Virus record (IMG/VR): IMGVR_UViG_3300042301_003793
Length of the DNA: 64,000 nucleotides
Strand: one strand, 5' to 3'
Origin: a virus
Shown here: positions 7,353 through 64,000 of the stretch, piece by piece
How the letters are laid out: every line of letters starts with the position of its first letter
Numbering within the stretch: position 1 is the first letter of the stretch
Made by a program: the position numbers and the translations under genes
The notes under the pieces: model-generated
The model's input: the letters and a program-made list of their open reading frames with translations, nothing else
Database searches by the model: none
What the model was told of the DNA's origin: nothing

Positions 7353-7363
7353 AATTATTTTAT

Positions 7364-8044: not shown

Positions 8045-8056
8045 AAAATAAGATAA

Positions 8057-8089: not shown

Positions 8090-8097
8090 AATTAATA

Positions 8098-9029: not shown

Positions 9030-9062
9030 AATTTTAAGGTCGTCTTGTGCGACCTTAAAATT
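9030..9062 (-). terminator. Hairpin separating the structural and replication operons
   Basis: Perfect 13-bp stem aattttaaggtcg / cgaccttaaaatt with 7-nt loop, overlapping the 9061 stop. Confidence 0.7.
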
Positions 9063-9744: not shown

Positions 9745-9745
9745 C

Positions 9746-26690: not shown

Positions 26691-27053
26691 TTAACAATAA
26701 AAATTACCTTCATAATCACCACAATTCATATCGTCATATTTTCCTGTTGTAACACAAGCTGTAACACAACTTAAAACTTTAGTATGTGTTAGAATAAATT
26801 CTTCACTAAAACAACTAGGGCAATTTTTAGCGTTTTTACAATACTTATCTTCAAGACCCAAACAATTCTTTATGTAACAGTTTCTGAGATTACCGTCCAA
26901 AACAGCATAAGCACACCATTCAGCATTTTTTTCACCTGGGTATTTTTTATTTAATTCTTTTATTTTATTAATGTTATCGTTTGATTCACTTATTAGAACT
27001 CCTTTTACAATTTTTGTTAAATCTGATTCTGTTAGTCTTATGATTTTTTTCAT
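26691..27053 (-). CDS. Cys-rich hypothetical protein with N-terminal MKKIIRLTESDL motif
   Basis: 120 aa with about 10 Cys; TATTTATA motif upstream. Confidence 0.7.
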   Translation of the reverse strand: MKKIIRLTESDLTKIVKGVLISESNDNINKIKELNKKYPGEKNAEWCAYAVLDGNLRNCYIKNCLGLEDKYCKNAKNCPSCFSEEFILTHTKVLSCVTACVTTGKYDDMNCGDYEGNFYC

Positions 27054-27095
27054 AGTATTAATTTATTTTTATAAATATATTATTAATAAAAAAAA

Positions 27096-27112
27096 GGGGG
27101 TCATTGACCCCC
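27096..27112 (-). terminator. Rho-independent terminator after the sheath gene
   Basis: gggggtc-att-gaccccc with a long T-run on the minus strand. Confidence 0.8.
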
Positions 27113-27135
27113 ACTTTATAATAATCTTTAATTTA

Positions 27136-45359: not shown

Positions 45360-45927
45360 AAAATGTAAAGAAGAAAAAGAAATTTGTGAGTTCTATAAGG
45401 ATAGAAAATCAAAAGACAGTAAAAGGTCAAGATGTAAAAAATGTTTAAATTTACAAAACACTTTATATGTTAAAAAAAATAAAGATAGAGTTAACTCTAT
45501 TAAACAAAAATATGTTGATAATAACAAAGAAAAAGTAAAACAAAGTAAAAAAGAATGGTTTGATAAAAATCCTAACTATAGAAATGAATGGACTATTAAT
45601 AATTATAAAAATGATTTTCTTTTCAGATTAGTCAATATAATGAGAGCAAGAACAAGACTTTTTTTAAAATCAAAAAATATTAGGAAGAAAAACAATACAT
45701 TTGAAATCGTAGGGTGTTCACCTGAATTTTTAAAAGAATATATTGAAAAGCAATTTACTAAAGGTATGAATTGGGAGTTATTTGGTAGTCACATACATAT
45801 TGACCACATAATCCCATTATCTTTTGCAAAAACAGAAGAAGAAACATATAAACTTTGTCATTATACAAATCTCCAACCACTTTGGGCTGAAGATAATTTA
45901 AAAAAAAGTAATAAAATTTTAAATTAA
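45340..45927 (+). CDS. HNH-family endonuclease with N-terminal Zn finger (homing-like)
   Basis: CKKC...CKKC; HIDHIIPL...CHYTNLQPLWAEDNLKKSNK. Confidence 0.8.
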   Translation: METKICKKCKEEKEICEFYKDRKSKDSKRSRCKKCLNLQNTLYVKKNKDRVNSIKQKYVDNNKEKVKQSKKEWFDKNPNYRNEWTINNYKNDFLFRLVNIMRARTRLFLKSKNIRKKNNTFEIVGCSPEFLKEYIEKQFTKGMNWELFGSHIHIDHIIPLSFAKTEEETYKLCHYTNLQPLWAEDNLKKSNKILN

Positions 45928-47585: not shown

Positions 47586-48826
47586 AAATCACCAATTAAT
47601 CTATCACACCAACCTTTTGATTTTGAATGTGGCCAAACAACCCAATATTTCGGTTTTTCTTTTGCGTTAAACTCCCTCCATATTTTTCCATAACCGTCGG
47701 CGTCTGTTTTTATTCTTTTGATTTCTTCTTCTTGTGCGTCCATACGATATATTGTTTCATCTTTATCGTTATGAAATGCAACAACTAAAAAATCATAATC
47801 GTCTTCTGGTATTTTATCTAATGGAATATCTATACAATGTTTGAATATTCTTAAAAAACTTTCTTTCCATTCTTTATCATTTTTATAATCATAAGGATTT
47901 GGTGGATAGTTTTTATCTATTGTATATTGTTGTACGGATCTTTTTTCAAAAAGAACACCGGCGTATTTTTCATAATCACGTATTGTTCTTTCTTTTCCAA
48001 AACCATATTTTAATTTTCCTTTAAATTTTTCACCGTCAACACCTAATACTTTTCTATTTTTACTATGTGAACTTTCATTTTTCTTATACCATACGCTATC
48101 ATCATCCCACTGTTTTGTTCTACCTTTTCTTGTGTACTCGTGATAAATTACAATTTTATGTGGATGGAATAAATCATATCCGTGAGTATAAGCTCTAACA
48201 GCAATTGATATTTCTTCTCCGTGAAAATAATATTCTGGGTCGTGTTGAACTTCTATTGAAAATTCACCTAATGTAAAACAGAAATGTGCCGAATAAAATC
48301 TTGCTGGGATTGGTTTTTTTAATTCTTGCCAACCTGGTATTACTTCTGGTAAAAAGAAAACAACACCTTCTGGTGTAAATCTATCAAATACCATTCTCCA
48401 GGGTTCTGTAACTCTTCCTTGTGGGTCGTTGTCTGGATCAAAAGATGAAACATAACCGGTAAGAAGTGGTTTTTTATAACCATCTTCTTGTAATTCTTTT
48501 AACATATTAATTAATGTCTCATCCCAATTTTTTTCAAAACGCATATGAGAATCTAATTGTAACGTGTATGTTTCACCACTATATAATTGTTGTACTTGAT
48601 GTCTTGCCCAACACACACCAGTGGACGCTGTGTAGACAATATCTAAAATTCTAAATCTATCATCACTCTCATATTCTGAAAGGTCATCAAAACCATCTTC
48701 TGGGTGATATTGTCTTGCAATCCCCAATCTTAAATTTTCTGGGTATTTTGCTTTGTTCAACATATCTTTAATTGTTGGTATAAGCTGGGGGTCTCGATAA
48801 GAGGCTATTTGTACAAATATTGTCAT
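47582..48826 (-). CDS. GT60-like polypeptide / hydroxyproline alpha-GlcNAc transferase
   Basis: IFVQIASYRD, GVCWAR, LQLDSHMRF, YFHGEEI, HEY motifs. Confidence 0.85.
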   Translation of the reverse strand: MTIFVQIASYRDPQLIPTIKDMLNKAKYPENLRLGIARQYHPEDGFDDLSEYESDDRFRILDIVYTASTGVCWARHQVQQLYSGETYTLQLDSHMRFEKNWDETLINMLKELQEDGYKKPLLTGYVSSFDPDNDPQGRVTEPWRMVFDRFTPEGVVFFLPEVIPGWQELKKPIPARFYSAHFCFTLGEFSIEVQHDPEYYFHGEEISIAVRAYTHGYDLFHPHKIVIYHEYTRKGRTKQWDDDSVWYKKNESSHSKNRKVLGVDGEKFKGKLKYGFGKERTIRDYEKYAGVLFEKRSVQQYTIDKNYPPNPYDYKNDKEWKESFLRIFKHCIDIPLDKIPEDDYDFLVVAFHNDKDETIYRMDAQEEEIKRIKTDADGYGKIWREFNAKEKPKYWVVWPHSKSKGWCDRLIGDL

Positions 48827-48842
48827 AGTTAGTTAAAAATAA

Positions 48843-49061
48843 CTAACACTGATAAAAATTAAATATTTCACAATCGTTTGAATCGATAAGTTTTACAAGT
48901 AGCGAACCAACGTTATTTAATGGGGGTGGAACCTCAAAGGTATATGCGGAAATGTATGTTCCGCCGGAAACTAAATAACAATAAGTGTTTGTGACATCAC
49001 AAACATACACATCGTATGGTGGTGTTCCAGTGGTTCCAGATATTGTAATTTCGTGTAACAT
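48843..49061 (-). CDS. Small beta-rich Cys-containing protein (possible virion decoration)
   Basis: 72 aa, co-oriented, 1-nt gap from the upstream gene. Confidence 0.7.
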   Translation of the reverse strand: MLHEITISGTTGTPPYDVYVCDVTNTYCYLVSGGTYISAYTFEVPPPLNNVGSLLVKLIDSNDCEIFNFYQC

Positions 49062-49062
49062 A

Positions 49063-49581
49063 TTAACTACATATAGGACTTAATGTTGGTGTAGGTGTAT
49101 TAGTCGGTGTATTTGACGGTGTAGGTGTATTAGTCGGTGTATTTGACGGTGTAAAATTTGGAGGCAACGGAGTAACACACAAGTCCCAAGTAGGAGTTGG
49201 TGTAGGTGTTGGTGTTGCAGTTGTTGTTGCCGTCGGAGTATTTGTAGGTGTAGGAGTCTGCGTTGGTGTTGGTGTGTTAGTAGGAGTCTGCGTTGGTGTT
49301 CTAGTAGGTGTTGGAGTTGGTGTTCTAGTAGGTGTATTTGTTGGAGTTGGTGTAGGTGTTGGCCTTGGTACATTTAAAAAGTTTGTACAATTACCACCAT
49401 CTGTTGATATTGTATATGTCCCATAAATTTCTTGTTGGGGTGTTAATAAATCTGGTTGAAAAGTGTATGGAAGTATAACAGAACCAATATTTATTGTAAT
49501 AGTACTATTATCTGGTTTGAATAATATTTGAGCAGGTTCACCGCTAAAATTTACACTTTGTATTGTAATTATCTGACTCAT
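49063..49581 (-). CDS. Mucin-like PT-repeat protein
   Basis: About 70-aa beta domain, then [14 protein letters not shown]... to the C-terminus; own TATTTATA motif. Confidence 0.8.
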
Positions 49582-49612
49582 TGTATTTTTTTATAAATAC
49601 AATCAAACAGAC

Positions 49613-49816
49613 TTATTTTTTAATTTTAATGTATTTGAACCAAACTCTTTCGTGTAAAAAATAAATAATTGGTTTTAATATTAATTCACCTAAACCTAAT
49701 AAAGAAGATATTTCTACTGACGCCCCAAGACAATATGCGACTACAACTGTGGTGATTGTCCCAAAAATTCTATAAGAAATTGTTTTTAATAAATGTCTTT
49801 TTAAGTCTGACTTCAT
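49613..49816 (-). CDS. DUF2061-like small membrane protein
   Basis: RHLLKTISYR...YFLHERVW. Confidence 0.75.
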   Translation of the reverse strand: MKSDLKRHLLKTISYRIFGTITTVVVAYCLGASVEISSLLGLGELILKPIIYFLHERVWFKYIKIKK

Positions 49817-49817
49817 T

Positions 49818-50273
49818 TTAATTTTTTTCCAATATCAATAAAACATCATCTTGTATGATTGGGTCAACTAATTTTTTCCAGTAATCATCTTTATTTTTTA
49901 TACAATTTCTAATACCAGTTGCAGAAATCCCACCAATTTCTTTTGGTGGTGTAAATTCATTTACTTCATATCCAACACCGCGACCAAAATTAACAGATTC
50001 AATATCTGGAATAATGATAACTTTAACATCATCACCTTTTGATTTATGGTACTTCTCAATCATAGAAACTGTTTGTTCTGTTGTAAAAGGATTTTTTTCA
50101 TCAGGTTCAATATCTCTAATCATAATTAAAACTGGTACTCCTTCATTTAATTTTTGTTGGATTAACTCAATGTGACCAAAATGATAAGGTTGATAACGAC
50201 CTACAAAAACTGCATACTTTTTACTTTCGTTATTTGTTGGATTTCCTCCGTGGTTTTTCTTTTCCCAACTCAT
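49818..50273 (-). CDS. HIGH-superfamily nucleotidyltransferase (NadM/cytidylyltransferase-like; candidate minimal ATP sulfurylase)
   Basis: GRYQPYHFGH, KNPFT, ISATGIR. Confidence 0.8.
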   Translation of the reverse strand: MSWEKKNHGGNPTNNESKKYAVFVGRYQPYHFGHIELIQQKLNEGVPVLIMIRDIEPDEKNPFTTEQTVSMIEKYHKSKGDDVKVIIIPDIESVNFGRGVGYEVNEFTPPKEIGGISATGIRNCIKNKDDYWKKLVDPIIQDDVLLILEKN

Positions 50274-50725
50274 ATGTGTTTAATTATTTCGTTTAATGAT
50301 TCTTGTGGATTAACACCTGTTGTATTAATATCAACAAAATTTTCTGATGGTTGTTCATACTCATCTGTATGGAAATGTTCTCTGCCTCTAATGTCTGTTG
50401 TATGAACATAAAACTCAACTAATAAATTTTGTAAATCATATTTAAAACTTTCTCTTAATTCTTTGTAAGGTGCAACAAGACTTACAATTACATCGTATCC
50501 TTGTACTAATAAAAATTTTGCAATGTCTTGAGCTCTTTTGATGTTTTCTTCTCTACCTTCTCTACCGTATTTTTGGTTATTGAAAAGTCTTCTTAATTCA
50601 TCACCGTCAATATGGAATACTTTATTTCCATATTCTTTTTCTAAAATTGTTTTTAACATTGTCGCTAATACAGTTTTACCAGCTCCTGGTTGTCCTGTAA
50701 ACCAATAAATCTTTTTTTCTTTCAT
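50270..50725 (-). CDS. cysC: Adenylylsulfate (APS) kinase
   Basis: WFTGQPGAGKT, IDGDELR, VSLVAPY, YEQP; ATG 50725 preferred. Confidence 0.85.
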   Translation of the reverse strand: MKEKKIYWFTGQPGAGKTVLATMLKTILEKEYGNKVFHIDGDELRRLFNNQKYGREGREENIKRAQDIAKFLLVQGYDVIVSLVAPYKELRESFKYDLQNLLVEFYVHTTDIRGREHFHTDEYEQPSENFVDINTTGVNPQESLNEIIKHI

Positions 50726-50727
50726 AA

Positions 50728-51546
50728 TCAAAAATAACCGAATTGGTCGTAAAACCATTGATGTTTTTGTTTTATCCAGTTACAAGCTGGTGTTCCAAGA
50801 ACTTCTTTATAATCTAATTTTAATGGTTCAATTTTAGATTTAATATTATGGTCACCATAAATTCCATAAACAGAATCATCTTCTTGTGTTATTTGTGTAA
50901 CATTATCAAAGTCGTGTTCAAAGTATGGTAACTCAAGATATTTATAAATTCTTTCCATTTCTTTTTTTGGATTTGAAGTGAAGTCTTCGAATTTAACAAA
51001 TAACATTTTATGATTAATACCTTCTTTGAAGATTTGATAAAGTCTTTCGACAGCCAAACCAACTGGTTGTGATTGTGACCAAATATCAATTCTTTTTTCT
51101 GTTGTAGTTCCTTGCATTTGCGCGTGATTAACAACACCAGAATCCATATGTTGACTCTTTCTAAAATTCTTTTCCATTGAGGCAAAGATTCCACGTAAGT
51201 CTCTTACCATACAAATAATCTTTGGTTCTGGATAAAAAGAATTTAAAAACCCATAATGAATACCCCAACCTCTACTTTTATCTAAAACATATGGTTTATC
51301 TGTTACACCATTAAAAAAACCTAACATACCTTGATTACAAAAGTTTAGAAAACCTTGTTTCATTAATTCTGAATCTTGTGCTTTAAACTCAGGTGATGAA
51401 GTGTAGTTTGCTCTTGCAGCATAAACTAATTCTAAAACACCAGATGTTGGTGTTACGTAAAACTCTGGATTTTGTCCCATAACATTTTGAAGTAATGTTG
51501 ATCCAGCTCTTGGTAATGAACTTTGGAAAAATATTTTTTCTACCAT
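50728..51546 (-). CDS. PAPS-dependent sulfotransferase
   Basis: 5'-PSB loop LPRAGSTLL; 3'-PB MVRDLRGIFAS; KFEDF. Confidence 0.88.
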   Translation of the reverse strand: MVEKIFFQSSLPRAGSTLLQNVMGQNPEFYVTPTSGVLELVYAARANYTSSPEFKAQDSELMKQGFLNFCNQGMLGFFNGVTDKPYVLDKSRGWGIHYGFLNSFYPEPKIICMVRDLRGIFASMEKNFRKSQHMDSGVVNHAQMQGTTTEKRIDIWSQSQPVGLAVERLYQIFKEGINHKMLFVKFEDFTSNPKKEMERIYKYLELPYFEHDFDNVTQITQEDDSVYGIYGDHNIKSKIEPLKLDYKEVLGTPACNWIKQKHQWFYDQFGYF

Positions 51547-51549: not shown

Positions 51550-52434
51550 TTAATTTTTTAGTGTTTCTATTATTTCGTTTATATTAAAGATGTTTGTATC
51601 AAATAAAGGACATTCGTGTATTGTACCATTAAAGTTGTAATCAAATAAGTAACTATCTGGTAACTTAACTGTTGTTGGTAGTTCTGCTATAATGTTTGTG
51701 TGTAATGGATAACCAAATACTTTTGGTGATGTACCAATCCACAATATGGTTGATGGTAGACCCATAGCAGCTGCCGCATGTTGTAAACAAGAATCAATTA
51801 ATAATCTTTTTTGAGCATAAGCTAATAATGAAAATAATTCCATATTAGACATAGGTTCTACGTGAGCCTCAACATTTTGTAAAACATTTGTTTGGTCTCT
51901 ACAAATTTGAATTATGTGATAATATTGTGAAAAGTGGTCAACAATTTTTTGAGCAACATCAAAAGGAATATCCCTTGTCCAAGAATATGGATATGGCTGT
52001 TCTTGTAATGGACCACCGTTTGTTTGAATGACCATTACAGGTTTTTCTCTTTTCCATTTATTAAATGCAACTTGTTGTTGTCTTAAATTAAATGAAAGTG
52101 ATGGCATTTCACCGTTATATTCTAAACCAAAAAGTTTACACCAATTCATAATTAATGGTAACTTTTTTTGGATATGGTCTGTTGTAAAATAAGGTTCGTG
52201 TTTAAAAATTAAACTATCTTTATCTTTAATGTAATCATCATAAAAATATGGTGTCATACCAATTCTATATACTCTATCAATAAAATCTAAATTTAAAAAT
52301 ATTTCTGGGTAAGCACAGACAATAATTAATTCCCTATCTGGGTGATTGTTTTTTATACATTTTGCAACAGCAGTTGATAGAACGTGTTTTCCTAAACCAC
52401 CTTCTAAATGAAATATACTATATTTTTTTTCCAT
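51550..52434 (-). CDS. GT-B glycosyltransferase, GT9-like
   Basis: GGLGKHVLST; LIDSCLQHAAAAMGLPSTILW. Confidence 0.75.
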   Translation of the reverse strand: MEKKYSIFHLEGGLGKHVLSTAVAKCIKNNHPDRELIIVCAYPEIFLNLDFIDRVYRIGMTPYFYDDYIKDKDSLIFKHEPYFTTDHIQKKLPLIMNWCKLFGLEYNGEMPSLSFNLRQQQVAFNKWKREKPVMVIQTNGGPLQEQPYPYSWTRDIPFDVAQKIVDHFSQYYHIIQICRDQTNVLQNVEAHVEPMSNMELFSLLAYAQKRLLIDSCLQHAAAAMGLPSTILWIGTSPKVFGYPLHTNIIAELPTTVKLPDSYLFDYNFNGTIHECPLFDTNIFNINEIIETLKN

Positions 52435-52450: not shown

Positions 52451-53368
52451 TTAATTTTTGTTAGTAAAGATAATTGCTTCGTTAATCTTATCTATTACCA
52501 TTTTTGGTTTTATTTTTGTGTGACATTCGTTTTCTCTTTCTGTTCCTAAAAATATTGGACATTTAGTTTTTATATTTGGAAACATATTAAAACATCCATT
52601 ACAAACATAAGGGTTTGTGACTCTAAAACAATCAAATTCGTTTTGACTTTTTGTAAAATTTGAAATCATAACAACTGGTACGTCATAGGCCCAAGCAAGC
52701 CAAGAAAGACCTGAAGATAAACCAACAAAGAACCTTGAACTAACAATATGGTCAATTGCAACATTTAAATCATCGTGACCGTGAAAACCAATAACATTTT
52801 CTAAATTCATTGTATTTTCATAAGAAATGTTATAAACGTTGTAACCTACATTATGTAATGAATTTACAATTGTTTGCCAACCCTCATTCCCATTATATTT
52901 CCATTGTGAAATTTCTTTAATTGTTTCTGGACCCATAGTAATTTTATTTGGGTCTATTGTTCTTAGTTTTGGAATTACTGGACATTTACCTGGTTTTGTT
53001 TCTTGCGGTAATCGCATTGTATCTTTAGCAGCATAAAACATACCACCTAAAGTGTGTGCCATATTATTTTTATCATAACCAACATCAACTAGTTTATCAA
53101 TTTCTAAAAAACCACTTTCATTTGCGTTAATAAACTCATAGTCTGGTCTATTTGATTTTAATAGGTGTGGAAAAAAAGTTGTAACCCAAACGTACTTTGG
53201 TTTGTGATAATCCATAAAAGCATCCATCAAAGATGAAAAACAAATTGTATCACCTAAACAAAATGAGTCAAAGTGTAATAATAATTCTTTTCCTTCAAAG
53301 GTTTCTAAGTTTGGCTCTCTTTCTTTATAGTTCATCAACTCAGAATTGTCGTAATGTCTTTTAACCAT
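52451..53368 (-). CDS. Aah/TibC-like protein O-glycosyl (heptosyl) transferase with Cys4 iron finger
   Basis: LGDTI, FFVGLSSGLSWLAWA, C-x2-C-x10-C-x11-C at 52523-52603. Confidence 0.72.
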   Translation of the reverse strand: MVKRHYDNSELMNYKEREPNLETFEGKELLLHFDSFCLGDTICFSSLMDAFMDYHKPKYVWVTTFFPHLLKSNRPDYEFINANESGFLEIDKLVDVGYDKNNMAHTLGGMFYAAKDTMRLPQETKPGKCPVIPKLRTIDPNKITMGPETIKEISQWKYNGNEGWQTIVNSLHNVGYNVYNISYENTMNLENVIGFHGHDDLNVAIDHIVSSRFFVGLSSGLSWLAWAYDVPVVMISNFTKSQNEFDCFRVTNPYVCNGCFNMFPNIKTKCPIFLGTERENECHTKIKPKMVIDKINEAIIFTNKN

Positions 53369-54104
53369 TTTTATATTTTAAAAGTTTAGAGTAATATTCA
53401 AACCAATATCTTTCTTGCCAGATTGTACCTTCTTCCAAATACACCAATGGTTTTTGTTGCCAAGGTTTTTTTACAATGTAGTGTAAAATTTTAATATGTT
53501 TTGGTAGTCCTGTATTTTTGAATATTTCTTTTGAATATGTTTTTAAGTAATTATATGATACTGGTATTTCAGTTATTTCATCATAAAAATAATTATTAAT
53601 AATATCTTGGTCCAGATGTTCTGTAATCCCATATATTGTTGTAAGATGTATTAAATCATCTGTTATTTTTTCAGATAAATATTTTTTTGAGATAACAAGA
53701 ACACCTGTGTTGTATTGGTCAATATATAAATCTCTAACACCACCAATATCACCATCAAAATCAATTAGATAATCAATGTTTCCTAAAATAACAACATCTG
53801 AATCTAAAAATATAATTTTGTTAAATTCAGTTAATGAAAAAATTTCATATTTAGTATAATCACCAAAAGACATTTGTTTTTCTTTTAGTTTTTCTATTTC
53901 AGAATATTTTTCGGTGTCAAATCTTTTTATGTGTATATTATTGTACATTCTTCTTGAGGCGACTAAATCTTCTGGTGTTAAATCATTTGTGATGATTACA
54001 AATGGTAATTTTTCACTAACAACTCTTGGGTTATTATCTATTAACGATTTTAACATTACCTCAAATCCTATAAGATAATCTTTATTACATACAGTTACAA
54101 ACAT
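53361..54104 (-). CDS. GT8-family glycosyltransferase
   Basis: IIFLDSD, YNTGV, DQDIIN, ILHYIVKKPW. Confidence 0.88.
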   Translation of the reverse strand: MFVTVCNKDYLIGFEVMLKSLIDNNPRVVSEKLPFVIITNDLTPEDLVASRRMYNNIHIKRFDTEKYSEIEKLKEKQMSFGDYTKYEIFSLTEFNKIIFLDSDVVILGNIDYLIDFDGDIGGVRDLYIDQYNTGVLVISKKYLSEKITDDLIHLTTIYGITEHLDQDIINNYFYDEITEIPVSYNYLKTYSKEIFKNTGLPKHIKILHYIVKKPWQQKPLVYLEEGTIWQERYWFEYYSKLLKYKNG

Positions 54105-54139
54105 ACCTCAAGTATAAAAAAAACATTATAAAAATAAAG

Positions 54140-54166
54140 AACCCCAACTGTTTTAAAATTGGGGTT
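54140..54166 (-). terminator. Hairpin after fibre gene 2
   Basis: aaccccaa / ttggggtt stem. Confidence 0.65.
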
Positions 54167-54189
54167 ATTAAAAATTTTATAATTTGTTA

Positions 54190-57100
54190 TTAAGGAACAA
54201 AATATATTCTATTTAAATCTGTTGGACAGTAGTAAACGGATTTTGAAGGTAAACCAGCAGAACTAGTTGGTAAATCAATAATACTTAAACAGTTTACATA
54301 TGTTGTATTTGGACAACTTGTTGTAATTCCATAACCAACAATAAATGAGCAATTGTGTGAAACTGTATTTCCGGATCCACCAAGAATACCAGAATATTGT
54401 GTTGTTATAGTGTTTTGATAACCACCACTTACGGTTGAATTAGTTCCACTTGATGTGTTACATCGTCCACCACTTACGGTTGAATTAGTTCCACTTGATG
54501 TGTTTTGTTGTCCGCCGCCAATTACAGAATAACCTCCGATTGATGTGTTACATCGTCCACCACTTACGGTTGAATAAACTCCACTTGATGTGTTATATAA
54601 ACCACCACCTACAGTTGAAATATCTCCACTTGATAAGTTAAAATAACCACCACTTACGGTTGAATTATTACCACTTGCTGTATTTTGTCGTCCACCATTT
54701 ATATTTGAGTGATAACCAATTGCAGTGTTACATCGCCCCCCACTTACGGTTGAATAACAACCACTTGTTGTGTTTGAAACTCCACCACTTACGGTTGAAA
54801 ATGTATTACTTGCTCTGTTACCACAACCACCACCTACGGTTGCAAAATTATAATCAGTTGTTGATACAAGGAATGATATATCATCAACACCAGAAGTTCC
54901 ACCAAACAATGTTCCGTCAAATAATAAAAAATCACCATCAATATAGTTTTGACCAGCCGCTGAAATGGTAATGCTGTTAACAACACCTGCGGTCAAGTTA
55001 AAGTTAAACAAAGAGCCAAAACCGTTAACACTAGTTGTAAATGAAGAAGATACTCCCGGAAAAATACCAGTTGTTGTTGATCCACTTGTATTTAAATTAT
55101 AATAATTACTTACAGTTCCGTTTATACCTGCAATGTTTACTTTACCACCACCAATTGATGAACCAATAGTACGTGCTGTGTTTTGATAACCACCACTTAC
55201 TGTTGAATAATTCCCACTTGTTGTATTAAATTCTCCACCACCAATAAATGAAAATGGATTACTTGCTGTGTTTTTATAGCCACCACTTACGGTTGAAAAT
55301 GTATTACTTGATTCATTACGAATTCCACCACTTACTGTTGAACTAATCCCACTTGCATTATTACAACCACCACCACTTACAGTTGAAATATCTCCACTTG
55401 CTGTGTTACAATCACCACCACTTACATTTGAACGAATTCCACTTGATGTGTTACAATATCCACCACTTACAGTTGAGTAAAAAGCTGATGCTGTATTTCC
55501 ACAACCTCCGGCAATTGTTGACGCATAACCTGTTGCAAAATTACTATATCCACCGCTCACAGTCGAGTATTCACCCAATGAAGCATTATTACAACCACCA
55601 CCAACAAATGAAAAAGGTCCTGAATTTGTGTTTATTTGTAATGTAACATCATCAGTACCTGATACACCACTAAAATTAGTTCCATCAAAAAATAATGTAT
55701 CACCATTAACATAATTAGAACCACCAGATACAATATTAAGAGATGAAAAAGAACCTGTATTAAAAGTAAAATTAAATACCGCACCCGTACCATATCCAGA
55801 AACAGTTGATGTTGGTGTAATACCACCGTATATACCATTAAAGGTTCCTCCGGTATATACTGTATTGTAGTAATTACTAACAGTATTTTTTATCCCTGCT
55901 TTATTTCCATAACCACCACTTATTGTTGAAAAGTTAGTATACGATGTATTTTGAAAACCTCCACTAACAAGTGAAAAGTTACCAAGAGCGTCATTTAATG
56001 TACCAATTCTTTGTGTTGAATCTACCCCAGAACCAATTTCATAAGGTCCAGAACCAATTCCTCCACCAACAACAACATTACCTTGAGCATCAATACCCAA
56101 ATCATTTATTGACGTACCAGTACTAATAATACCTATATTTAATCCTGGTACATAAACAGTATCATCTGTTGTTCCAGAAATATTTTGTCCACCTAAAATA
56201 ACACTCCTATCTGCTTGTAAAGTAGAGTTATTTGAAAATACCATTGAGCAATCACCAATAACTATGTTATTAGCACCACCGGCAATTGCAGAACAATAAC
56301 CAGAAACTGTATTACTATATCCACCGGCAATATTACTATTAAATCCTATTACTGTATTAAATTGTCCACCGGCAATTGTTGTACCATCAGAATAAGTTTC
56401 ATTTGATAAACCACCTAATATTGATGCGTATGTTCCGTAGTTTTTATTTTGTGAACCACCTGCAACAACAGAAATGTTTGATACCGTTGTGTTTCCACAT
56501 CCACCACCTACAAATGAACCAGATCCTAAGTTTGCGTTATTACATCCACCAACAATAATAGAAAAGTTTGCGTCTGATGTGTTACAGCACCCACCAAGAA
56601 TTGCACTACCACAAGAATCAACCGTATTGTATTCTCCACCACCAACAACTGTAAAATCACAATTTGCGATGTTTGAGTTACCCCCACCAACAAAAGCTGT
56701 TGTGTCGGCTGCTGTGTTAAATCTACCACCAGCAACAATTGCAAAATCTCCAATAGCACTATTCTGTGCTCCACCACCAACGGTTGAGCAAGCATTTAAT
56801 GCAACATTTTCAAAACCACCACCAACAGTTGTGTTATAATCAGAAGCAGTGTTTGATTCTCCACCACCAATTGCCGAATATTTTCCAGAAGAAGTATTGT
56901 TACAACCAGCAACAACAGAAGCATAATTTTGTGATGCAACATTTAAGTAACCACCACCAATAAATGTACAGCTATCTAAAATTGTATTTTTACAACCACC
57001 AACAATTGTTGAAAGGTCGCCATTTATTGTATTTAATTCTCCGCCACCAATAAATGTTGATGATGAATTTGTTGTGTTTGTATTGCAATAACCACCAGTA

Positions 57101-57375
57101 ATTGAACCAAATGTTCCATTATTTGTATTACAATAACCGCCACCGATAAAAGAATAATTCCCAGTTGATTTATTACATCTACCACCAGTAATTACACCCA
57201 TACAACCAGTTGTTGTATTAAAAAAACCACCAACTATTGTTCCGTAGTTTTTATCTGCTGTGTTTGAATACCCACCTAATACTGTTGAATAATTACATCT
57301 AGCAGCATTATTATTATCACATCTAACTGTAGAGTTTATCCCACCTACCGGGTCATCAATTATAACGTAAGCCAT
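54190..57375 (-). CDS. Tail fibre / adhesin paralogue 2 (15-aa Gly/Ser/Cys repeats, two inserted beta-domains)
   Basis: STVSGGxxNT repeats; YEIGSGVDSTQRIG shared with fibre 1. Confidence 0.75.
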   Translation of the reverse strand: MAYVIIDDPVGGINSTVRCDNNNAARCNYSTVLGGYSNTADKNYGTIVGGFFNTTTGCMGVITGGRCNKSTGNYSFIGGGYCNTNNGTFGSITGGYCNTNTTNSSSTFIGGGELNTINGDLSTIVGGCKNTILDSCTFIGGGYLNVASQNYASVVAGCNNTSSGKYSAIGGGESNTASDYNTTVGGGFENVALNACSTVGGGAQNSAIGDFAIVAGGRFNTAADTTAFVGGGNSNIANCDFTVVGGGEYNTVDSCGSAILGGCCNTSDANFSIIVGGCNNANLGSGSFVGGGCGNTTVSNISVVAGGSQNKNYGTYASILGGLSNETYSDGTTIAGGQFNTVIGFNSNIAGGYSNTVSGYCSAIAGGANNIVIGDCSMVFSNNSTLQADRSVILGGQNISGTTDDTVYVPGLNIGIISTGTSINDLGIDAQGNVVVGGGIGSGPYEIGSGVDSTQRIGTLNDALGNFSLVSGGFQNTSYTNFSTISGGYGNKAGIKNTVSNYYNTVYTGGTFNGIYGGITPTSTVSGYGTGAVFNFTFNTGSFSSLNIVSGGSNYVNGDTLFFDGTNFSGVSGTDDVTLQINTNSGPFSFVGGGCNNASLGEYSTVSGGYSNFATGYASTIAGGCGNTASAFYSTVSGGYCNTSSGIRSNVSGGDCNTASGDISTVSGGGCNNASGISSTVSGGIRNESSNTFSTVSGGYKNTASNPFSFIGGGEFNTTSGNYSTVSGGYQNTARTIGSSIGGGKVNIAGINGTVSNYYNLNTSGSTTTGIFPGVSSSFTTSVNGFGSLFNFNLTAGVVNSITISAAGQNYIDGDFLLFDGTLFGGTSGVDDISFLVSTTDYNFATVGGGCGNRASNTFSTVSGGVSNTTSGCYSTVSGGRCNTAIGYHSNINGGRQNTASGNNSTVSGGYFNLSSGDISTVGGGLYNTSSGVYSTVSGGRCNTSIGGYSVIGGGQQNTSSGTNSTVSGGRCNTSSGTNSTVSGGYQNTITTQYSGILGGSGNTVSHNCSFIVGYGITTSCPNTTYVNCLSIIDLPTSSAGLPSKSVYYCPTDLNRIYFVP

Positions 57376-57405: not shown

Positions 57406-57431
57406 AAACCCCCACTATTAAATGGGGGTTT
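57406..57431. terminator. Hairpin terminator, possibly bidirectional, between fibres 3 and 2
   Basis: aaaccccca / tgggggttt stem with flanking T and A runs. Confidence 0.75.
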
Positions 57432-57436: not shown

Positions 57437-60400
57437 TTAAAGTTTAACCCAAAGTTGAGTACCACCACCTGACGCACTTGTTGTACACCTATAAACAGTA
57501 CCACTTGGAAGTGCTGTAACTTCAGTTTCGGTTGGTAAACTTTTTAAAGTAACTCTTGAACAAGTGTTTGGAGATGAAATACCGCCACCATTAACTGTAA
57601 AGTTATTTACAAAAGTTGTGAAACATTGATCAGTTGTAATGTTACATCCTAAAACGTGTGAATCACTTAAACAAACTGTGTTTGCTCTACCAACGGCCGA
57701 TGAATAAGAGGCAAGATTACTAATGTTGTTTCCACAACCACCTTTAATTGTTGACCAAGGAACATTAGTACCAATTATGTTACTTTCACCACCACCAATT
57801 GTACTACAACAAGAATTGTTTGTATTTAATCTACCACCAACAATACTTGAGTGAGACTGTAATACACAGTTAGATTGACCACCACCAATTGTTGAATAAG
57901 ATTGGATTAGACAGTTAAAAGCTCCACCACCAATTGTTGACGCATAACCTGTTGCAGATATTGAGTTTGAAATACCACCTAAGATACCTGCTACTGTAGA
58001 TGCTGCAGTATTTGTACTACCTAAAACAACAGAACAAGGACCGCTAGCAATGTTTGCTGATCCAGTTCTAAGAGTTGAAAGTGAGCCTGTACCCGCAACA
58101 ACAATTTGAGTTGGAATTGATGTTAAACCAGCTGGTAATCCACTTACAGTTGCAACGCCATTTTGTCTATTTAATGTGATTAAACCGTTAGCGTTATTAT
58201 ATGTACCACCAGTAACAAAGAAATCATTACTTTGGAAACCAGGTACAGTAACATTAGTACCATTGTTTTGACCAAGAGTTAAGGTACCATTTGAATATGT
58301 CCCACCAGTTACAAATGTGTTTTGTGTTTGGAACCCAAGAATACTTACATCGGTAGCACCATTTGATTGTGATAATACTAATTCACCTATTGTTGGGTTA
58401 TATGTACCACCAGTTAAATATTTATCACTATCAATTAATGTTGCTAAATCAACATTAAATGAATTTCCATCATTTCTATCAAATGTAATTTGTGAAAGTA
58501 CGTTATCATACGTACCACCAGTAACGTATGTGTTTTCAGTTACAATTGTAAACGGACCACCATTTGGTGTTAAATTATATTCTAAAGTTGATGTTTGTAC
58601 ATTTGTATTATCATTTCCAGATGTTAATGTACTTCCTGTTACAAAATAATCTGTAAATCCAGTTGCCGTAACTTGAGAGCCATCGGTATTTGTTAAAGTT
58701 AATGTATCACCAACTTTTGTTGCACCAGTCAAATATGTGTCCGTGTATCCAGTTGTAAATCCAGAAATTTGTACTGTATTTCCAGATGTGTTAACAAATG
58801 TTACAACACCTGTATTTGCATCATATGTACCACCAGTTAAACCTAAGTCAGTTGCTAAAACACCTAAATTTACTTGTAAATCATTTCCATCATTAACCGA
58901 TGCTGTTAAAATAAATGAACTATTATCAAATGTTAATCCAGTTAAAAAGTAATCTGTTTGAGATACTACCGAAACAACATTACCAGACGCATCAACACCT
59001 AATGTAGAAACTGGCGTTGTTGCACCAACTGTTTGAATATTTAATTGTGGAACATAAACAGTATCATTTGTTGTACCAGTAATATTTTGTCCACCTATTA
59101 CAGCTGACCTATTTCCTGTTACAACGTTTTGACATCCACCAAGAATCATAGATTGTGTTGCTTGAGCTCTGTTTTCTACACCACCAGCAATAACTGAGTT
59201 ATTTCCAGTCGCAGTATTTCTTAGACCTCCAAGAATTGATGATTCAAAATTAAGAGCAGTATTACATCTACCACCACCAATTGTTGATCTATAACCAGAT
59301 GCGGTATTTCTATATCCACCACTTATTGTGTTATTTATACCAAATGATGTATTAAATGAACCACCACCTACATTTGATCTATTCCCAACTGCTGAGTTAT
59401 ATAAACCACCACCTACTGATGATTGGAAATTATAAGTTTCATTACAATATCCACCACCAATTACTGACGCAAAACCGTATGCTTTATTCCCAAATCCACC
59501 ACCAATTGCGATGCTTCCACCACAACCAGTATTACAACAACCACCAGCAACAGTATCACTCAAATTACAAGTTTTGTTAGATCTACCACCACCTATAGCT
59601 GTGTAGTTACTAAATGTTTGATTATTACAACCACCATTAATTGTTGAGAATGACCCATTTAATTGGTTAACAGCCCCACCATTAATAACACCCATATATC
59701 CAAAGTTGTTGTTAGCAAAACCACCACCAACAAATGAATAATTACCACTAGCAATATTAACAAAACCACCGGCAACAACGTCACTATTATTATTTGCTTG
59801 GTTTTGACAACCACCACCAATTGTACTTGCAAATCCATTTGCATTATTATTAACACCAAACACAGTTGAATATTGACCGTTAGCGTTATTTCCTGAGTTT
59901 TTCCTTACTGAAGAAGAAAATCCATTACCTCCAACAATTACAGCATCTTCAATTCCAGAAATATCTACTGTACCATTTTGTTGTTGGATTGTTAAGGTTG
60001 ATGTTGATGGAGTATAAAAACCACCAGTAACATATGTATCTGTATATCCAGTTAAGAAACCAGTAACACTAAATGTACCACCAGAGTTATTTGTAAAAGT
60101 TGCAGTACCAGAGTTTAAATCATATGTACCACCAGTTACTCTTAAATCACCAGCTAAAATACCTAAATTAACCGTGTAGGCACTATAGTTGTTTAGTTCA
60201 ACTGTTAAGGCGTAAGTACTTTGGTCAAATGTAAATCCAGTTGTAAAGTAATCTGTAGCGCCAGTTGTAAAACCAGTCACAACAAAAGAACCACCCTGGT
60301 TGTTTTCAAATGTTGCACTACCAGTTGAGTTATCATATGTACCTCCCGTAACATATGTGTCGATAGATGTAAACCCAGTTACAAGAACTGATGAACCATC

Positions 60401-61873
60401 TGTATTTGTTAAAGTCAAATTGCCGGCAGTAAATGTACCACCAGTCAAATATGTGTCTGTGTATCCAGTTGTGAAACCAGAAATTTGTACTGTATTTCCA
60501 GATGTGTTTATAAATGTTACAACACCAGTATTTGCGTTATATGTTCCACCTGTTAAACCTAAGTCAGTTGCTAGAACACCAAGATTTATTGTATCACTAA
60601 AACCATCATTTCTTCCAATAGTTAAATCAAAACTATTTGTATCAAATGTTACACCGGTAAAATATTTATCTTCTAAACCAGATATAGAAACATTTGTTCC
60701 GTTTTTCATTTCTAAAGTAAGACCACCAGCATTATAATTAAATGTACCACCAGTCACAAAATTGTCTCCTGTAACAAATCCACCTTGAACCACGTTACTA
60801 CCATTACTATTAATTAATGTTAAAACACCTGTAACATTATCTAATGTTGACGCACTTAAAAATATATCATTATCACCACCAATTACAACATTACCATTAG
60901 CATCTATTCCTAAATTATTAACAGATGTTGTAGTACCAATTGAATCGATATTTAATTTTGGTACATAAACAGTATCAGCTGATGTTCCTGTTAAGCCAGC
61001 ACCACCAAGGATAACCGACCTTGTACCAGTTAGTACATTTCCATTTCCACCAATAGTTGCGGAGTAATTCCCACTAACTTTATTTAATTGACCATTCCCA
61101 ACAAAAGAATTTACACCTCTTGCAATGTTATTATCACCACCAACTATTGTTGATCCTGACATCGCGGTGTTATTATCACCACCAAGAATGTTAGATTTTA
61201 AATTTATTGCTGTGTTGCAGTATCCCCCACCAACAATTGTGTAATCTGACATGGCAGAATTTAAAACACCACCAACAACAATTGCTGATTTTCCATTTGC
61301 AACGTTTTCACAACCACCATTTATGTTAGCAAATGTTCCGTTAAGATTATTACCAAAACCACCAACAATTGAAGAGTAGCTCCCGTTCAAATTATTTAAT
61401 CTACCATTCCCAATAAAAGTGTCGCACCCAATTGCTATATTATTATCCCCACCAACAATACTACTACTACAACATGCTGTGTTATTGTCTCCACCAAGAA
61501 CAATAGATTTCAAACCAATTGCCGTGTTATAATAACCACCACCAATAATTGTATAATCTGATTGTGCTGTATTAAATGCACCACCATTAACAATCGATGA
61601 TTTACCATTTGCAAAGTTACTACATCCACCACCAATATTACTTAGTAATCCGTTAGAACGGTTAAGGTAACCACCATTTATACTTGAATAACTTCCGTTT
61701 GCCGTATTTCCTCTACCACCGGCAATTGTTGAGTATCCGGTATTTCCACTTGTCGTGTTTGCTCTACCCCCAGAAACGGTAGAATAAAGAGCTGAAGCAG
61801 AATTTGTTTGCCCACTCCTAACTGTTGTTGTTAATCCACCTACTGGATCTGTAATAATAACATAATTTGACAT
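57437..61873 (-). CDS. Tail fibre / adhesin paralogue 3 (three repeat blocks separated by VTGGTY shaft repeats)
   Basis: N-terminus YVIITDPVGG matches fibre 2; GGxxN repeats; VTGGTYD/N repeats shared with fibre 1. Confidence 0.75.
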   Translation of the reverse strand: MSNYVIITDPVGGLTTTVRSGQTNSASALYSTVSGGRANTTSGNTGYSTIAGGRGNTANGSYSSINGGYLNRSNGLLSNIGGGCSNFANGKSSIVNGGAFNTAQSDYTIIGGGYYNTAIGLKSIVLGGDNNTACCSSSIVGGDNNIAIGCDTFIGNGRLNNLNGSYSSIVGGFGNNLNGTFANINGGCENVANGKSAIVVGGVLNSAMSDYTIVGGGYCNTAINLKSNILGGDNNTAMSGSTIVGGDNNIARGVNSFVGNGQLNKVSGNYSATIGGNGNVLTGTRSVILGGAGLTGTSADTVYVPKLNIDSIGTTTSVNNLGIDANGNVVIGGDNDIFLSASTLDNVTGVLTLINSNGSNVVQGGFVTGDNFVTGGTFNYNAGGLTLEMKNGTNVSISGLEDKYFTGVTFDTNSFDLTIGRNDGFSDTINLGVLATDLGLTGGTYNANTGVVTFINTSGNTVQISGFTTGYTDTYLTGGTFTAGNLTLTNTDGSSVLVTGFTSIDTYVTGGTYDNSTGSATFENNQGGSFVVTGFTTGATDYFTTGFTFDQSTYALTVELNNYSAYTVNLGILAGDLRVTGGTYDLNSGTATFTNNSGGTFSVTGFLTGYTDTYVTGGFYTPSTSTLTIQQQNGTVDISGIEDAVIVGGNGFSSSVRKNSGNNANGQYSTVFGVNNNANGFASTIGGGCQNQANNNSDVVAGGFVNIASGNYSFVGGGFANNNFGYMGVINGGAVNQLNGSFSTINGGCNNQTFSNYTAIGGGRSNKTCNLSDTVAGGCCNTGCGGSIAIGGGFGNKAYGFASVIGGGYCNETYNFQSSVGGGLYNSAVGNRSNVGGGSFNTSFGINNTISGGYRNTASGYRSTIGGGRCNTALNFESSILGGLRNTATGNNSVIAGGVENRAQATQSMILGGCQNVVTGNRSAVIGGQNITGTTNDTVYVPQLNIQTVGATTPVSTLGVDASGNVVSVVSQTDYFLTGLTFDNSSFILTASVNDGNDLQVNLGVLATDLGLTGGTYDANTGVVTFVNTSGNTVQISGFTTGYTDTYLTGATKVGDTLTLTNTDGSQVTATGFTDYFVTGSTLTSGNDNTNVQTSTLEYNLTPNGGPFTIVTENTYVTGGTYDNVLSQITFDRNDGNSFNVDLATLIDSDKYLTGGTYNPTIGELVLSQSNGATDVSILGFQTQNTFVTGGTYSNGTLTLGQNNGTNVTVPGFQSNDFFVTGGTYNNANGLITLNRQNGVATVSGLPAGLTSIPTQIVVAGTGSLSTLRTGSANIASGPCSVVLGSTNTAASTVAGILGGISNSISATGYASTIGGGAFNCLIQSYSTIGGGQSNCVLQSHSSIVGGRLNTNNSCCSTIGGGESNIIGTNVPWSTIKGGCGNNISNLASYSSAVGRANTVCLSDSHVLGCNITTDQCFTTFVNNFTVNGGGISSPNTCSRVTLKSLPTETEVTALPSGTVYRCTTSASGGGTQLWVKL

Positions 61874-61953: not shown

Positions 61954-64000
61954 TTAAGAACCAACTTCTGTTGCAAGACAAATTTCTCCATTTTCTCTAA
62001 TAAGTCTAGTCATATCGTTAAAAGATATATAAGCATGACCACCAAGACCCCAAGATTTTCCCCAACTATTTTTAATTCTAAAAACTTTTTTATTTAAGTC
62101 CACACCATTTATAAGATAAGCGTGACCACCAACAAATCTACCAGTTAATCTTATGTTTCCATTTCTATCTGGAAAAAACATTCCATTATACCAATTTGTA
62201 CCAACTACAACAGGACCAACCTTTAATACTGTATTTACAAGTGTTGATAAATCAAATGCCCAATAATAAGATTTTACTTTACCAATTTGTTGTAAATATT
62301 TTACAGCACCCCTAACTGATGTACCATTATAATTTTCACCTGGCCATTGGTCTAATTTTTGTGCATTAAAATAAATTGTACTTGGATGTACAACTGGTGG
62401 TTTGCCGGACTGTTGAACCGGTCCATCTTCCAACCAATGTGACCAGGAATACCCAACACATTGTGGTAGTGCTCCTTGATTACCCCACCATCCATTTGCG
62501 TCCCAAAATCTTTGTGTTAATATTTGTGGTTTTGTTGAGATTGACTGTATTAATTTTTGATTATTTTTAATTAGGTAATTTAAATCTCTTTTGTCTTCAA
62601 CATAAATTCTTCCTAATTCAAAAGGTAATGTTGATGCACTTGATGGTGTTATTTCAGTTTCACCACTTATTGTATATGTAAAATCATTTGTTAAACAAAT
62701 TTCTGTATCACAATCTGGACAGAAAGGATTAAACAATCTAAATTTATCTTTTAGTATATTAAAGTTGTGTCTTATTTCAGAAGAATCTAAAGGTTGTACA
62801 TACATCCTAAATTGTGAAATACCCCCTTCAAACGTACCACCAAATTCTTTTTCCAATAATATATTTGTTGTAAGACCAGACAATGATGTACCAGATAAAA
62901 CAGATGTTGGGAACAACTCTGGGTCCTGTATAAAATCACTACTTAAATTTTCACAAGTTGATGGTACTAAATTTTCGTGAAGTCCTTGTGTACCACCACC
63001 CCAAGAAATGTTAAATGGAACCCCAACTTGTTTTTCTTTGTCTGTCGGTAATGCCCTTGGGATTAGTTCTTCAAAATCTTTTATTGTGTATATTAATTTA
63101 CCATTAACATAAATTAGTAATTTACCTTTTCTATATTTTTCATCTAATAACCAACTATCATTTAACTTAACAGTTTCTATTTGTTCAGATTCTTTTTTAC
63201 CGTTTGAATATGGTGGAGCAATTAAAGTAAAACTATTGTTTGCTAAACTTTCAAGGTATTCTTTTTTTGTAATATCTCCTAGACCACCAAACCACCATAA
63301 GTCACAGTTATCTAAATTTGTATATCGTTTCCAGACAACATCTAATAAAAACCAATGTTCTTGTTCTATAAATGCTGGATTTTGTTGTTCACAATAAGAA
63401 TATATTGGTGGTGTACACCATTCTTGGATTGTATAACCGGTAACAAATGTTGTTCCAGTTCCAGTTACTGTATTTCCAGTTGTAATACATTCACCAGTAA
63501 ATCTTAAAACTTTTATACCTATACCTGGATTTTGTGGGTCACCACATAATTTGAATGAGATGTTATTCGACATTGAATCGAGTAGCGGGTCTTTTTCGCA
63601 AGTATCCTCTACGGATGTAAACCCAGAAGTAGGACAATCCAAACAATCAAGACAAGTATCACAAGTTGTACAAGTCGGTGTACATTCAGGAAGTGGTGTA
63701 TCACAACTTGGTGTAGGACTAGGAAGTGGTGTAGGTGTTGGTGTTGGTTGTATTACATCACCACAATAGTGTGTCTGACATTCCCAACCACAAGTTTCAC
63801 AAGCAAATTGATTACAACCACAACCACACGTTGCTGCACTCATAGGATTACCTTTACAAGAACCACAACCATAATTTATATGTGGGTCGTGAATACCATT
63901 TAACGAACGTGGTGGATAAAGATATATACACCTACTATTTGTAATATTTAAATTACAACAAGCACAAGTCTGTAAACAATTTGCAAGCGGTGTTGTAACT
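61954..64000 (-). CDS. 5'-truncated virion-type protein: Cys-rich and PT region + LamG-like domain + C-terminal papain-like (C1A) peptidase
   Basis: Frame stays open from 63843 to the window end. IYVNG...FEGGISQFRMY (LamG-like); NQGALPQCVGYS, GGHAY, KNSWG catalytic triad. Confidence 0.8.
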   Translation of the reverse strand, partial: VTTPLANCLQTCACCNLNITNSRCIYLYPPRSLNGIHDPHINYGCGSCKGNPMSAATCGCGCNQFACETCGWECQTHYCGDVIQPTPTPTPLPSPTPSCDTPLPECTPTCTTCDTCLDCLDCPTSGFTSVEDTCEKDPLLDSMSNNISFKLCGDPQNPGIGIKVLRFTGECITTGNTVTGTGTTFVTGYTIQEWCTPPIYSYCEQQNPAFIEQEHWFLLDVVWKRYTNLDNCDLWWFGGLGDITKKEYLESLANNSFTLIAPPYSNGKKESEQIETVKLNDSWLLDEKYRKGKLLIYVNGKLIYTIKDFEELIPRALPTDKEKQVGVPFNISWGGGTQGLHENLVPSTCENLSSDFIQDPELFPTSVLSGTSLSGLTTNILLEKEFGGTFEGGISQFRMYVQPLDSSEIRHNFNILKDKFRLFNPFCPDCDTEICLTNDFTYTISGETEITPSSASTLPFELGRIYVEDKRDLNYLIKNNQKLIQSISTKPQILTQRFWDANGWWGNQGALPQCVGYSWSHWLEDGPVQQSGKPPVVHPSTIYFNAQKLDQWPGENYNGTSVRGAVKYLQQIGKVKSYYWAFDLSTLVNTVLKVGPVVVGTNWYNGMFFPDRNGNIRLTGRFVGGHAYLINGVDLNKKVFRIKNSWGKSWGLGGHAYISFNDMTRLIRENGEICLATEVGS

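Follow-up and report, generated by a model that had tools for sequence, protein, structure and literature searches.

A minimal TibC-like glycosyltransferase beside serine-rich beta-roll fibres in a large uncultured tailed phage

Can a phage glycosylate its own fibres with an enzyme akin to those that modify bacterial autotransporter adhesins? The question is raised by a locus in a 64,000-nucleotide stretch of viral DNA (IMG/VR record IMGVR_UViG_3300042301_003793), referred to below, at its full length, as the window. It is DNA of a large uncultured tailed phage with a G+C content of ~30%. An initial annotation, made from the letters alone, had proposed that one gene of this locus encodes an Aah/TibC-type iron-finger glycosyltransferase which modifies the neighbouring fibres processively. 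The 305-residue product of this gene is a homologue of TibC in the broad BAHT superfamily, distinct from the GT9 enzymes of lipopolysaccharide (LPS) synthesis. It is a new virus-specific minimal variant of that superfamily and not an equivalog of Aah/TibC. With moderate confidence, it is proposed that this BAHT-like enzyme O-glycosylates Ser in the phage's own adhesin-like fibres and that two neighbouring gene products, a GT8 glycosyltransferase and a GT9-like protein, extend the glycan.

The motifs on which the initial annotation relied are all present in the translation. LGDTI lies within CLGDTICF (G39-D40), FFVGLSSGLSWLAWA occupies residues 213-227, and the C-x2-C-x10-C-x11-C knuckle is intact, with its four cysteines arranged as C256-N-G-C259-x10-C270-x11-C282. 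The profile of NCBIfam TIGR04414 (Aah/TibC) is matched over positions 80-373 of 374 with E 2.9e-34 and 118.6 bits, a score which lies below the curated equivalog cut-off of 200 bits; the claimed kinship with Aah and TibC therefore stands by sequence and, as described below, by fold, whereas equivalence does not. In a sequence search of the PDB, TibC alone matches the protein (E 1.2e-14). Heptosyltransferase I (TIGR02193) gives E 0.0037 and 16.5 bits against a cut-off of 185.3, and PF01075 (GT9, WaaC/WaaF) gives 16.1 bits, below its gathering cut-off of 22. An AlphaFold2 (AF2) model, built with 26 homologues as input, reached a predicted local distance difference test score (pLDDT) of 91.2 and a predicted template modelling score (pTM) of 0.89. 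Foldseek of this model lists TibC chains first (E 1.7e-19, query TM-score (TMq) 0.77), ~11 orders of magnitude better than the WaaC/WaaF matches (E 1e-7 to 1e-8, TMq 0.53-0.61). A clustering with WaaC/WaaF of LPS synthesis, named beforehand as contrary to the assignment, is not seen, TibC being closer by both TIGR04414 and Foldseek.

At the level of the family, 970 cluster representatives (50% identity) match at E <=1e-3. In the tree, the window protein falls on a long branch within a clade of short forms (support 1.0), whose members are all 301-305 residues long and exclusively viral. Two barrel-bearing metagenomic proteins are the sisters of this clade, which is separate from the bacterial TibC clade and from the fused viral forms. 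Cellular proteins match at 31-35% identity at best, and only four GenBank phage records carry a relative of the enzyme, each at <31% identity. The nearest record (G001) gave no BAHT match, a megablast of the window's DNA polymerase gene against GenBank phages gave no match, and PHROGs contains no family for the enzyme or for the fibres. Purifying selection acts on the gene, as the ratio of nonsynonymous to synonymous substitution rates (dN/dS) in comparisons with five orthologues lies at 0.08-0.26. Public annotation pipelines call these proteins "autotransporter strand-loop-strand O-heptosyltransferase", a label which overstates present knowledge. No paper on the phage members came up in a literature search that combined TibC, BAHT or O-heptosyltransferase with phage.

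Features of TibC were mapped onto the phage protein through a phmmer alignment, a 26-sequence MAFFT alignment (A1) and a hidden Markov model alignment of 212 domains. The catalytic base of TibC is D110, located in its LGD motif, W305 contacts O4 of the heptose, and C339, C342, C358 and C370 are the cysteines of the iron finger (PMC4358343). The counterparts of D110 and W305, which are D40 and W223, are kept in 11 of 11 distinct clade members; a more distant short form, P0127, has Glu at the D110 position. The four cysteines are invariant in A1 and present in all 11 clade members, with a first Cys loop 5 residues shorter than that of TibC. P300 of TibC, which is Ser in Aah, sets the heptose stereoselectivity (PMC4358343), and the phage protein has S218 at this position, as in Aah.

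Other parts of TibC are missing. Its N-terminal flattened beta-barrel comprises residues 1-97, and deletion of 80 or 95 residues abolishes activity (PMC4358343). This barrel is absent from the phage protein, whose first residue precedes the catalytic core by ~23 positions. Upstream extension of the frame is impossible, since its ATG and the final codons of GT8 share 8 nt (sequence ATGGTTAA). The beta-hairpin thumb of TibC, with its hydrophobic tip F265/V266, is required for the dodecamer (PMC4358343, Yao et al. 2014). In the phage protein the thumb is deleted: the alignment has a 3-residue and a 5-residue gap at the tip, which makes the region 8 residues shorter, and the AF2 model has in this region (residues 181-200) a loop with a two-residue bridge only.

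The donor site has been altered as well. In TibC, T226 and K230 contact the beta-phosphate and R286 contacts adenine N1; R286 is said to exclude guanine, and mutation of T226, K230 or R286 abolishes or reduces activity (PMC4358343). The corresponding phage residues are I150, S154 and A204, the last position being Ser or Ala throughout the clade, and K151, three residues upstream of the K230 position, is invariant in the clade. Of 110 bacterial domains, 101 retain R286 and 109 retain K230, while the other viral domains keep K230 and carry Thr at position 286 in 46 of 66. Because the barrel, the thumb, the adenine-reading Arg and the canonical Thr/Lys pair are missing, a TibC-like processive ADP-heptose dodecamer is unlikely. 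The initial annotation had pictured an oligomeric, processive machine, and this part of it falls with the loss of the barrel, on which activity depends, and of the thumb, on which the dodecamer depends. A monomer or small oligomer, and not a processive ring, is the probable active form. In this regard, the minimal 305-residue form can be viewed as a natural experiment which separates the dispensable parts of TibC (barrel, thumb and ring) from the indispensable ones (Asp, Trp and Cys4 knuckle).

As to the donor sugar, the replacement of R286 by Ala or Ser and of K230 and T226 speaks against ADP-heptose, which had been suggested at first together with the caveat that the sugar might differ; it is the caveat that finds support. 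GmhA and both domains of HldE were sought without success in five relatives, one rated 100% complete (304 kb) and four partial, and Gmd, the GDP-mannose dehydratase, is present in two of these five, including the complete one. Given the loss of the adenine-reading Arg and the lack of GmhA/HldE in the searched relatives, ADP-heptose is an unsafe assumption, and its use in the manner of TibC is unlikely. The donor is not fixed by sequence: the host could still supply ADP-heptose, and a GDP-sugar or another nucleoside diphosphate sugar is plausible. Because viral members have lost the adenine-reading Arg systematically, the donor specificity of the family can be put directly to the test. The kinase and nucleotidyltransferase encoded at 49818-50758 were also considered as a split HldE for ADP-heptose synthesis; this was ruled out, as they score as adenosine 5'-phosphosulfate (APS) kinase and as a fold like that of nicotinamide mononucleotide adenylyltransferase.

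The proposed acceptors are three fibres, F1, F2 and F3 (Table 1). F1 contains 18.9% Gly and 13.7% Ser, and its self-similarity is strongest at lag 15 (identity 0.32). The 15-residue unit common to the three proteins has the consensus Y-S-T-[VI]-[GS]-G-G-x-x-N-T-[AS]-S-G-x and is repeated in register in F1. F1 matches the head of UspA1, a trimeric autotransporter adhesin of Moraxella (PDB 3PR7), with E 1.8e-31, and the Pfam search of the fibres matched the grass antifreeze beta-roll, which is related. For the C-terminal 222 residues of F1, an AF2 model has a pLDDT of 78. Foldseek of this model gave no match at E <=0.001, and VIA-align placed UspA1 at the top (Z 18.1), followed by CbpF (17.6), BpaC (14.2) and YadA (12.6), BoaA also being listed; TibA, which is glycosylated by TibC, has Z 13.8 with a root-mean-square deviation of 3.5. 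The beta-helical fibres announced by the initial annotation are thus real but not of the AIDA-I/TibA type, since both sequence and VIA-align point to a UspA1-like trimeric-autotransporter head. Pfam found no C-terminal membrane-anchor beta-barrel in F1, F2 or F3, the head-type repeat being the only part in common with trimeric autotransporters. Each beta-roll block ends with D-T-V-Y-V-P-x-L-N-I, which presumably recalls the neck motif of those proteins. Cys occurs at unit positions 8-9 in 12-23% of the units, with 20-32 Cys per fibre protein. F2 also contains, at residues ~330-640 and ~960-1290, two blocks of ~37-38-residue repeats (T-G-G-T-[YF]...T-F-x-N...V-[ST]-G-F) between its beta-roll blocks, a module distinct from the 15-mer.

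The serines of TibA that are modified by TibC sit in Q-N-S-G-G and N-T-S-A-A (PMC4358343). F1 and F3 each have 15-16 [VI]-S-G-G and 12-13 N-T-[AST]-S motifs, a likeness which is a resemblance between motifs and not a test.

The gene order on the minus strand is F2, F1, GT8, BAHT-like gene and GT9-like gene. The enzyme gene therefore lies two genes downstream of F1, the Ser-rich fibre with GG repeats, just as the initial annotation had placed it. Motifs of the xGGxxN 15-mer number 49 in F1, 41 in F2 and 34 in F3, and 0-1 in the other 19 window open reading frames (ORFs) of >=300 residues. F1, F2 and F3 are thus the sole 15-mer fibres of the window, and they bracket a transferase and sulfation island at 45.9-54.1 kb. 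Among 16 IMG/VR relatives (62-90% identity), each one with upstream sequence shows the same succession of fibre, GT8, BAHT-like and GT9-like genes, while the presence of the sulfation genes varies. Locus L170 encodes a protein with 49% identity to the sister protein P0126; its gene order differs, and the gene still adjoins a 15-mer fibre. A viral scan with the distant short form P0127 gave no useful locus. In bacterial genomes, the ORF directly after a BAHT gene often carries 19-residue repeats, in keeping with an AIDA-type partner.

Table 1. Features of the window, in the numbering of the whole stretch, and related features of other viral loci, given with the locus identifier
Feature	Position	Strand	Description
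BAHT-like (TibC/Aah superfamily) glycosyltransferase	52451-53368	-	305 aa; minimal: GT-B core and Cys4 knuckle
GT8 glycosyltransferase	53361-54104	-	247 aa; D-S-D motif; PF01501 E 2e-25
GT9-like virus-only protein	51550-52434	-	294 aa; distant relative of the BAHT family
Fibre F1	54190-57375	-	1061 aa; ~48 units of 15-residue Ser-rich beta-roll repeat; UspA1-head homologue; proposed acceptor
Fibre F2	57437-61873	-	1478 aa; 33-41 beta-roll 15-mers in blocks, ~38-residue modules between; proposed acceptor
Fibre F3	41255-44164	-	969 aa; 32-34 units of the F1-type 15-mer; opposite side of the island; proposed acceptor
Terminator-like hairpin with T-run	54140-54166	-	between F1 and GT8
Remaining decoration island	45924-51546	-	sulfotransferase, APS kinase, small nucleotidyltransferase, DUF2061, GT60-like N-acetylglucosamine transferase, HtrL/YibB-like
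Giant collagen-like proteins	L022:4552-14529, L018:10931-17314, L076:11543-20839, L031:6206-16198, L044:9999-17495		
GT9-like relatives	L028:11235-12110, L051:9269-10216, L058:10864-11739, L069:12324-13268		

More widely, a pattern scan of IMG/VR found at least 594 BAHT-like stretches, in which the domain stands alone or is part of a fusion. Association with fibres was examined in 18 viral lineages which are <60% identical to each other and not phylogenetically independent, with 30 control regions, each 20 kb long, drawn from the 18 contigs concerned. An ORF of Ser/Thr/Gly-rich repeats is present in 16 of the 18 BAHT-centred loci and in one of the 30 controls (Fisher p ~1e-9), and the lone positive control is apparently the remainder of a giant repeat gene which is cut by the boundary of a case locus on its contig (L023). 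This result shows membership of a fibre module and not the identity of the acceptor. Together with the three 15-mer fibres that flank the island, it lends support to the original idea of the fibres as acceptors.

Among the matches listed, most BAHT-like domains form the C-terminal part of fusions of 700-1500 residues with methyltransferase, GT-A and GT4 domains. These fused forms adjoin giant proteins of 1000-3300 residues, which consist of collagen-like G-[ST]-[ST] triplets broken up by globular modules (Table 1), and such loci appear to be a second kind of viral fibre-glycosylation locus, and a more frequent one. One contig (G009, that of L004) carries three BAHT-like copies: a stand-alone short form, one inside a 1503-residue fusion and a degenerate one with three internal stops; the copies lie at 26817-27704, 11908-12984 and 9061-9852. 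In the cultured cyanophage Microcystis phage Mel-JY01 (L204, PP395634.1), a BAHT-like domain stands at the C-terminus of a 1226-residue protein (4750-8430), which is annotated only as "methyltransferase FkbM" and adjoins a "structural protein".

The GT9-like neighbour belongs to a family whose ESM Atlas clusters are 100% viral and which hhalign relates to the BAHT profile with a probability of 95.9%. It lacks the Cys4 motif and has an invariant GGxGK where GT9 and BAHT enzymes have the catalytic LGD; QTNGG, YSWxRDxP and KRxxxDS are conserved as well. Relatives with 36-54% identity are found near BAHT-like genes in other viral lineages (Table 1). Its role may be that of an unusual transferase or of a partner without catalytic activity.

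The window also encodes a 1219-residue tail sheath, a DNA polymerase and a helicase. Upstream of the fibres, at 61954-63843 (minus strand), lies the gene of a 629-residue protein with a C-terminal papain-like domain (Peptidase_C1; phrog_16701 "peptidase"). GC-rich hairpins with T-runs are located directly 3' of both F1 and F2, at 54140-54166 and 57406-57431. The first of them, terminator-like, separates F1 from GT8, and the enzyme genes need not reach the levels of the fibres. The two hairpins suggest that fibre genes and enzyme genes differ in their expression levels.

Family kinship, fold, residue pattern, gene neighbourhood and purifying selection rest on observation; the acceptor, the donor, the order of the steps and the effect on the virion are what we infer in the scheme proposed here. 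In the infected cell, Asp40 would act as the base in the transfer of a sugar from a nucleotide sugar to Ser hydroxyls in the 15-residue beta-roll repeats of F1, F2 and F3, for example at [VI]-S-G-G and N-T-[AS]-S-G. The translationally coupled GT8 and the GT9-like neighbour would subsequently lengthen the glycan, which might be further decorated by the products of the adjacent sulfation genes.

Several points weigh against this scheme. T226, K230 and R286 are all replaced and the barrel on which TibC activity depends is missing, and the enzyme may have an altered or non-catalytic role. The enzyme could also belong to the fibre and decoration module and yet act on another protein of it, such as the Pro-Thr proteins. 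A hairpin terminator stands between F1 and the enzyme genes, and TibC acts on beta-helices that are monomeric, whereas the fibres presumably form trimers. The synteny in the clade of 62-90% identity counts as a single event, because it is inherited. Adjacency of enzyme and fibre is not exclusive, since two 15-mer fibre genes of the complete relative (G002) adjoin the enzyme and two lie ~70 kb off. When the repeat ORFs were re-placed at random within their loci, 9.6 were expected within 1.5 kb of the BAHT gene and 11 were observed; this test is uninformative because the repeat ORFs are very large, and the control regions of the same contigs were therefore used.

Some of these points would suit a true glycosyltransferase whose acceptor is something other than the beta-roll fibres, namely a different protein of the virion encoded in the island (for example a Pro-Thr-rich protein or a sheath decoration), a pre-attached glycan or a host surface molecule. 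Co-location would then reflect general membership of a virion-decoration module. The island indeed holds at least five other transferase-like genes, including the GT60-like enzyme, and the remote fibre genes of the complete relative, the within-locus closeness no better than random placement and the hairpin are compatible with this alternative. It is nevertheless regarded as unlikely. The sole activity experimentally shown for the family is the O-glycosylation of Ser in repeat beta-solenoid adhesins (PMC4358343), and the partners follow suit, 19-residue-repeat proteins adjoining the bacterial members and Ser/Thr-rich repeat fibres the viral ones in the locus comparison given above. Moreover, GT8, BAHT-like and GT9-like genes always come directly after the fibre in the clade, whereas the rest of the island varies.

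Less probable still is that no sugar is transferred at all and that the protein serves as a Cys4-dependent factor for fibre binding or assembly, as proposed for Burkholderia BimC. BimC is a full-length protein with 44% identity to TibC over 93% coverage (PMC11499645). It is reported to bind the membrane anchor of its partner BimA, a trimeric autotransporter, via the iron finger and to serve its polar targeting (PMC11499645, citing Lu et al. 2015). Heads of trimeric autotransporters are what the phage fibres look like, no feature of the phage protein is more strictly conserved than the Cys4 knuckle, and the changes at the donor site and the loss of barrel and thumb would fit a binding role. Against it stand the catalytic Asp, the sugar-contacting Trp and the relocated invariant K151, which are kept in all clade members, as well as strong purifying selection along the whole gene. 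Translational coupling also links the gene to GT8, which is intact and has a DXD motif, and the fusion of relatives to GT4, GT-A and methyltransferase domains points to an enzymatic assembly line.

The least probable explanation is a full counterpart of Aah/TibC, that is, a dodecameric and processive Fe-Cys4 ADP-heptose:Ser heptosyltransferase fed by host ADP-heptose, for which TibC as best match by sequence and fold, the Cys4 motif, the catalytic Asp, the W305 equivalent and the Aah-like Ser at position 300 can be adduced, but which is opposed by the score below the equivalog cut-off, the lack of the barrel and the thumb tip, both needed by TibC (PMC4358343), the change of the adenine-reading R286 to Ala and the failure to find ADP-heptose pathway genes in the complete relative.

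To return to O-glycosylation of the fibres, a broader reading is possible and is put forward tentatively. Viral BAHT-like domains would form a large undescribed class of fibre O-glycosyltransferases, which use non-ADP donors and coat Ser/Thr-rich beta-roll and collagen-like fibres, and in the clade of the window protein the GT9-like protein would be an obligate partner. The use of non-ADP donors may be expected because the adenine-reading Arg has been dropped. By analogy with the pair GtfA/GtfB, the GGxGK neighbour may replace the lost barrel and thumb. If the favoured scheme is true, a family of Ser-directed cytoplasmic adhesin glycosyltransferases, one of few known, has been widely taken up by aquatic phages, which coat their receptor-binding fibres with sugar. 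This would bear on host recognition, on the protease resistance of fibres and on the interpretation of fibre structures and host-range predictions.

Among known systems, TibC/Aah (TIGR04414; PDB 4RAP, 4RB4) is like the phage locus in its GT-B (GT9-like) core, the LGD motif with the catalytic Asp, the GLxSGLSWLAW donor-site helix with its sugar-contacting Trp and the C-x2-C...C...C metal knuckle, and in a gene that adjoins a surface protein with a Ser-Gly-Gly-rich repeat beta-solenoid. The phage protein differs in being phage-encoded and in its length of 305 residues as compared to ~406, and its neighbour has 15-residue repeats of the trimeric-adhesin-head type, not a 19-residue AIDA-type helix. 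The heads of UspA1, YadA, BpaC and CbpF (PDB 3PR7, 1P9H, 7O23, 9U93) are the closest to the fibres, and the UspA1 head repeat Y-S-T-I-G-G-G-x-x-N-x-A-x-G-x aligns with the fibre repeats. Unlike these adhesins, the phage fibres have no autotransporter beta-barrel anchor, and their repeats are richer in Ser/Thr, the first Gly of GGG often being Ser and N-T-[AS]-S-G being frequent. BimC/BimA resembles the phage pair in that a Cys4-finger protein of BAHT type is encoded beside a protein of trimeric-autotransporter architecture; the differences are that the phage fibres lack a membrane anchor and that the catalytic residues are retained in the phage protein.

In the literature searched, phage virion glycosylation is documented experimentally only for mycobacteriophages (PMC12582341, citing Freeman et al. 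2023 as ref. 80). Other enzyme families are at work there: phage-encoded glycosyltransferases reportedly act in the host cytoplasm on structural proteins of the same phage, the acceptors being the C-terminal tails of capsid and tail-tube proteins. That system thus differs from the present one in enzymes and acceptors, having neither a BAHT-like enzyme nor a beta-roll fibre. In the serine-rich repeat adhesins of streptococci, cytoplasmic GtfA/GtfB, which are of the GT-B type, initiate O-glycosylation and GT8 enzymes elongate the glycan; the initiating enzyme belongs to GT4 and the acceptors are disordered Ser-rich repeats. The streptococcal system is bacterial, its enzyme is GT4 and not BAHT-like, and its acceptor is not a beta-roll, yet its course, GT-B initiation followed by GT8 on Ser-rich adhesin repeats, is the one proposed here for the phage.

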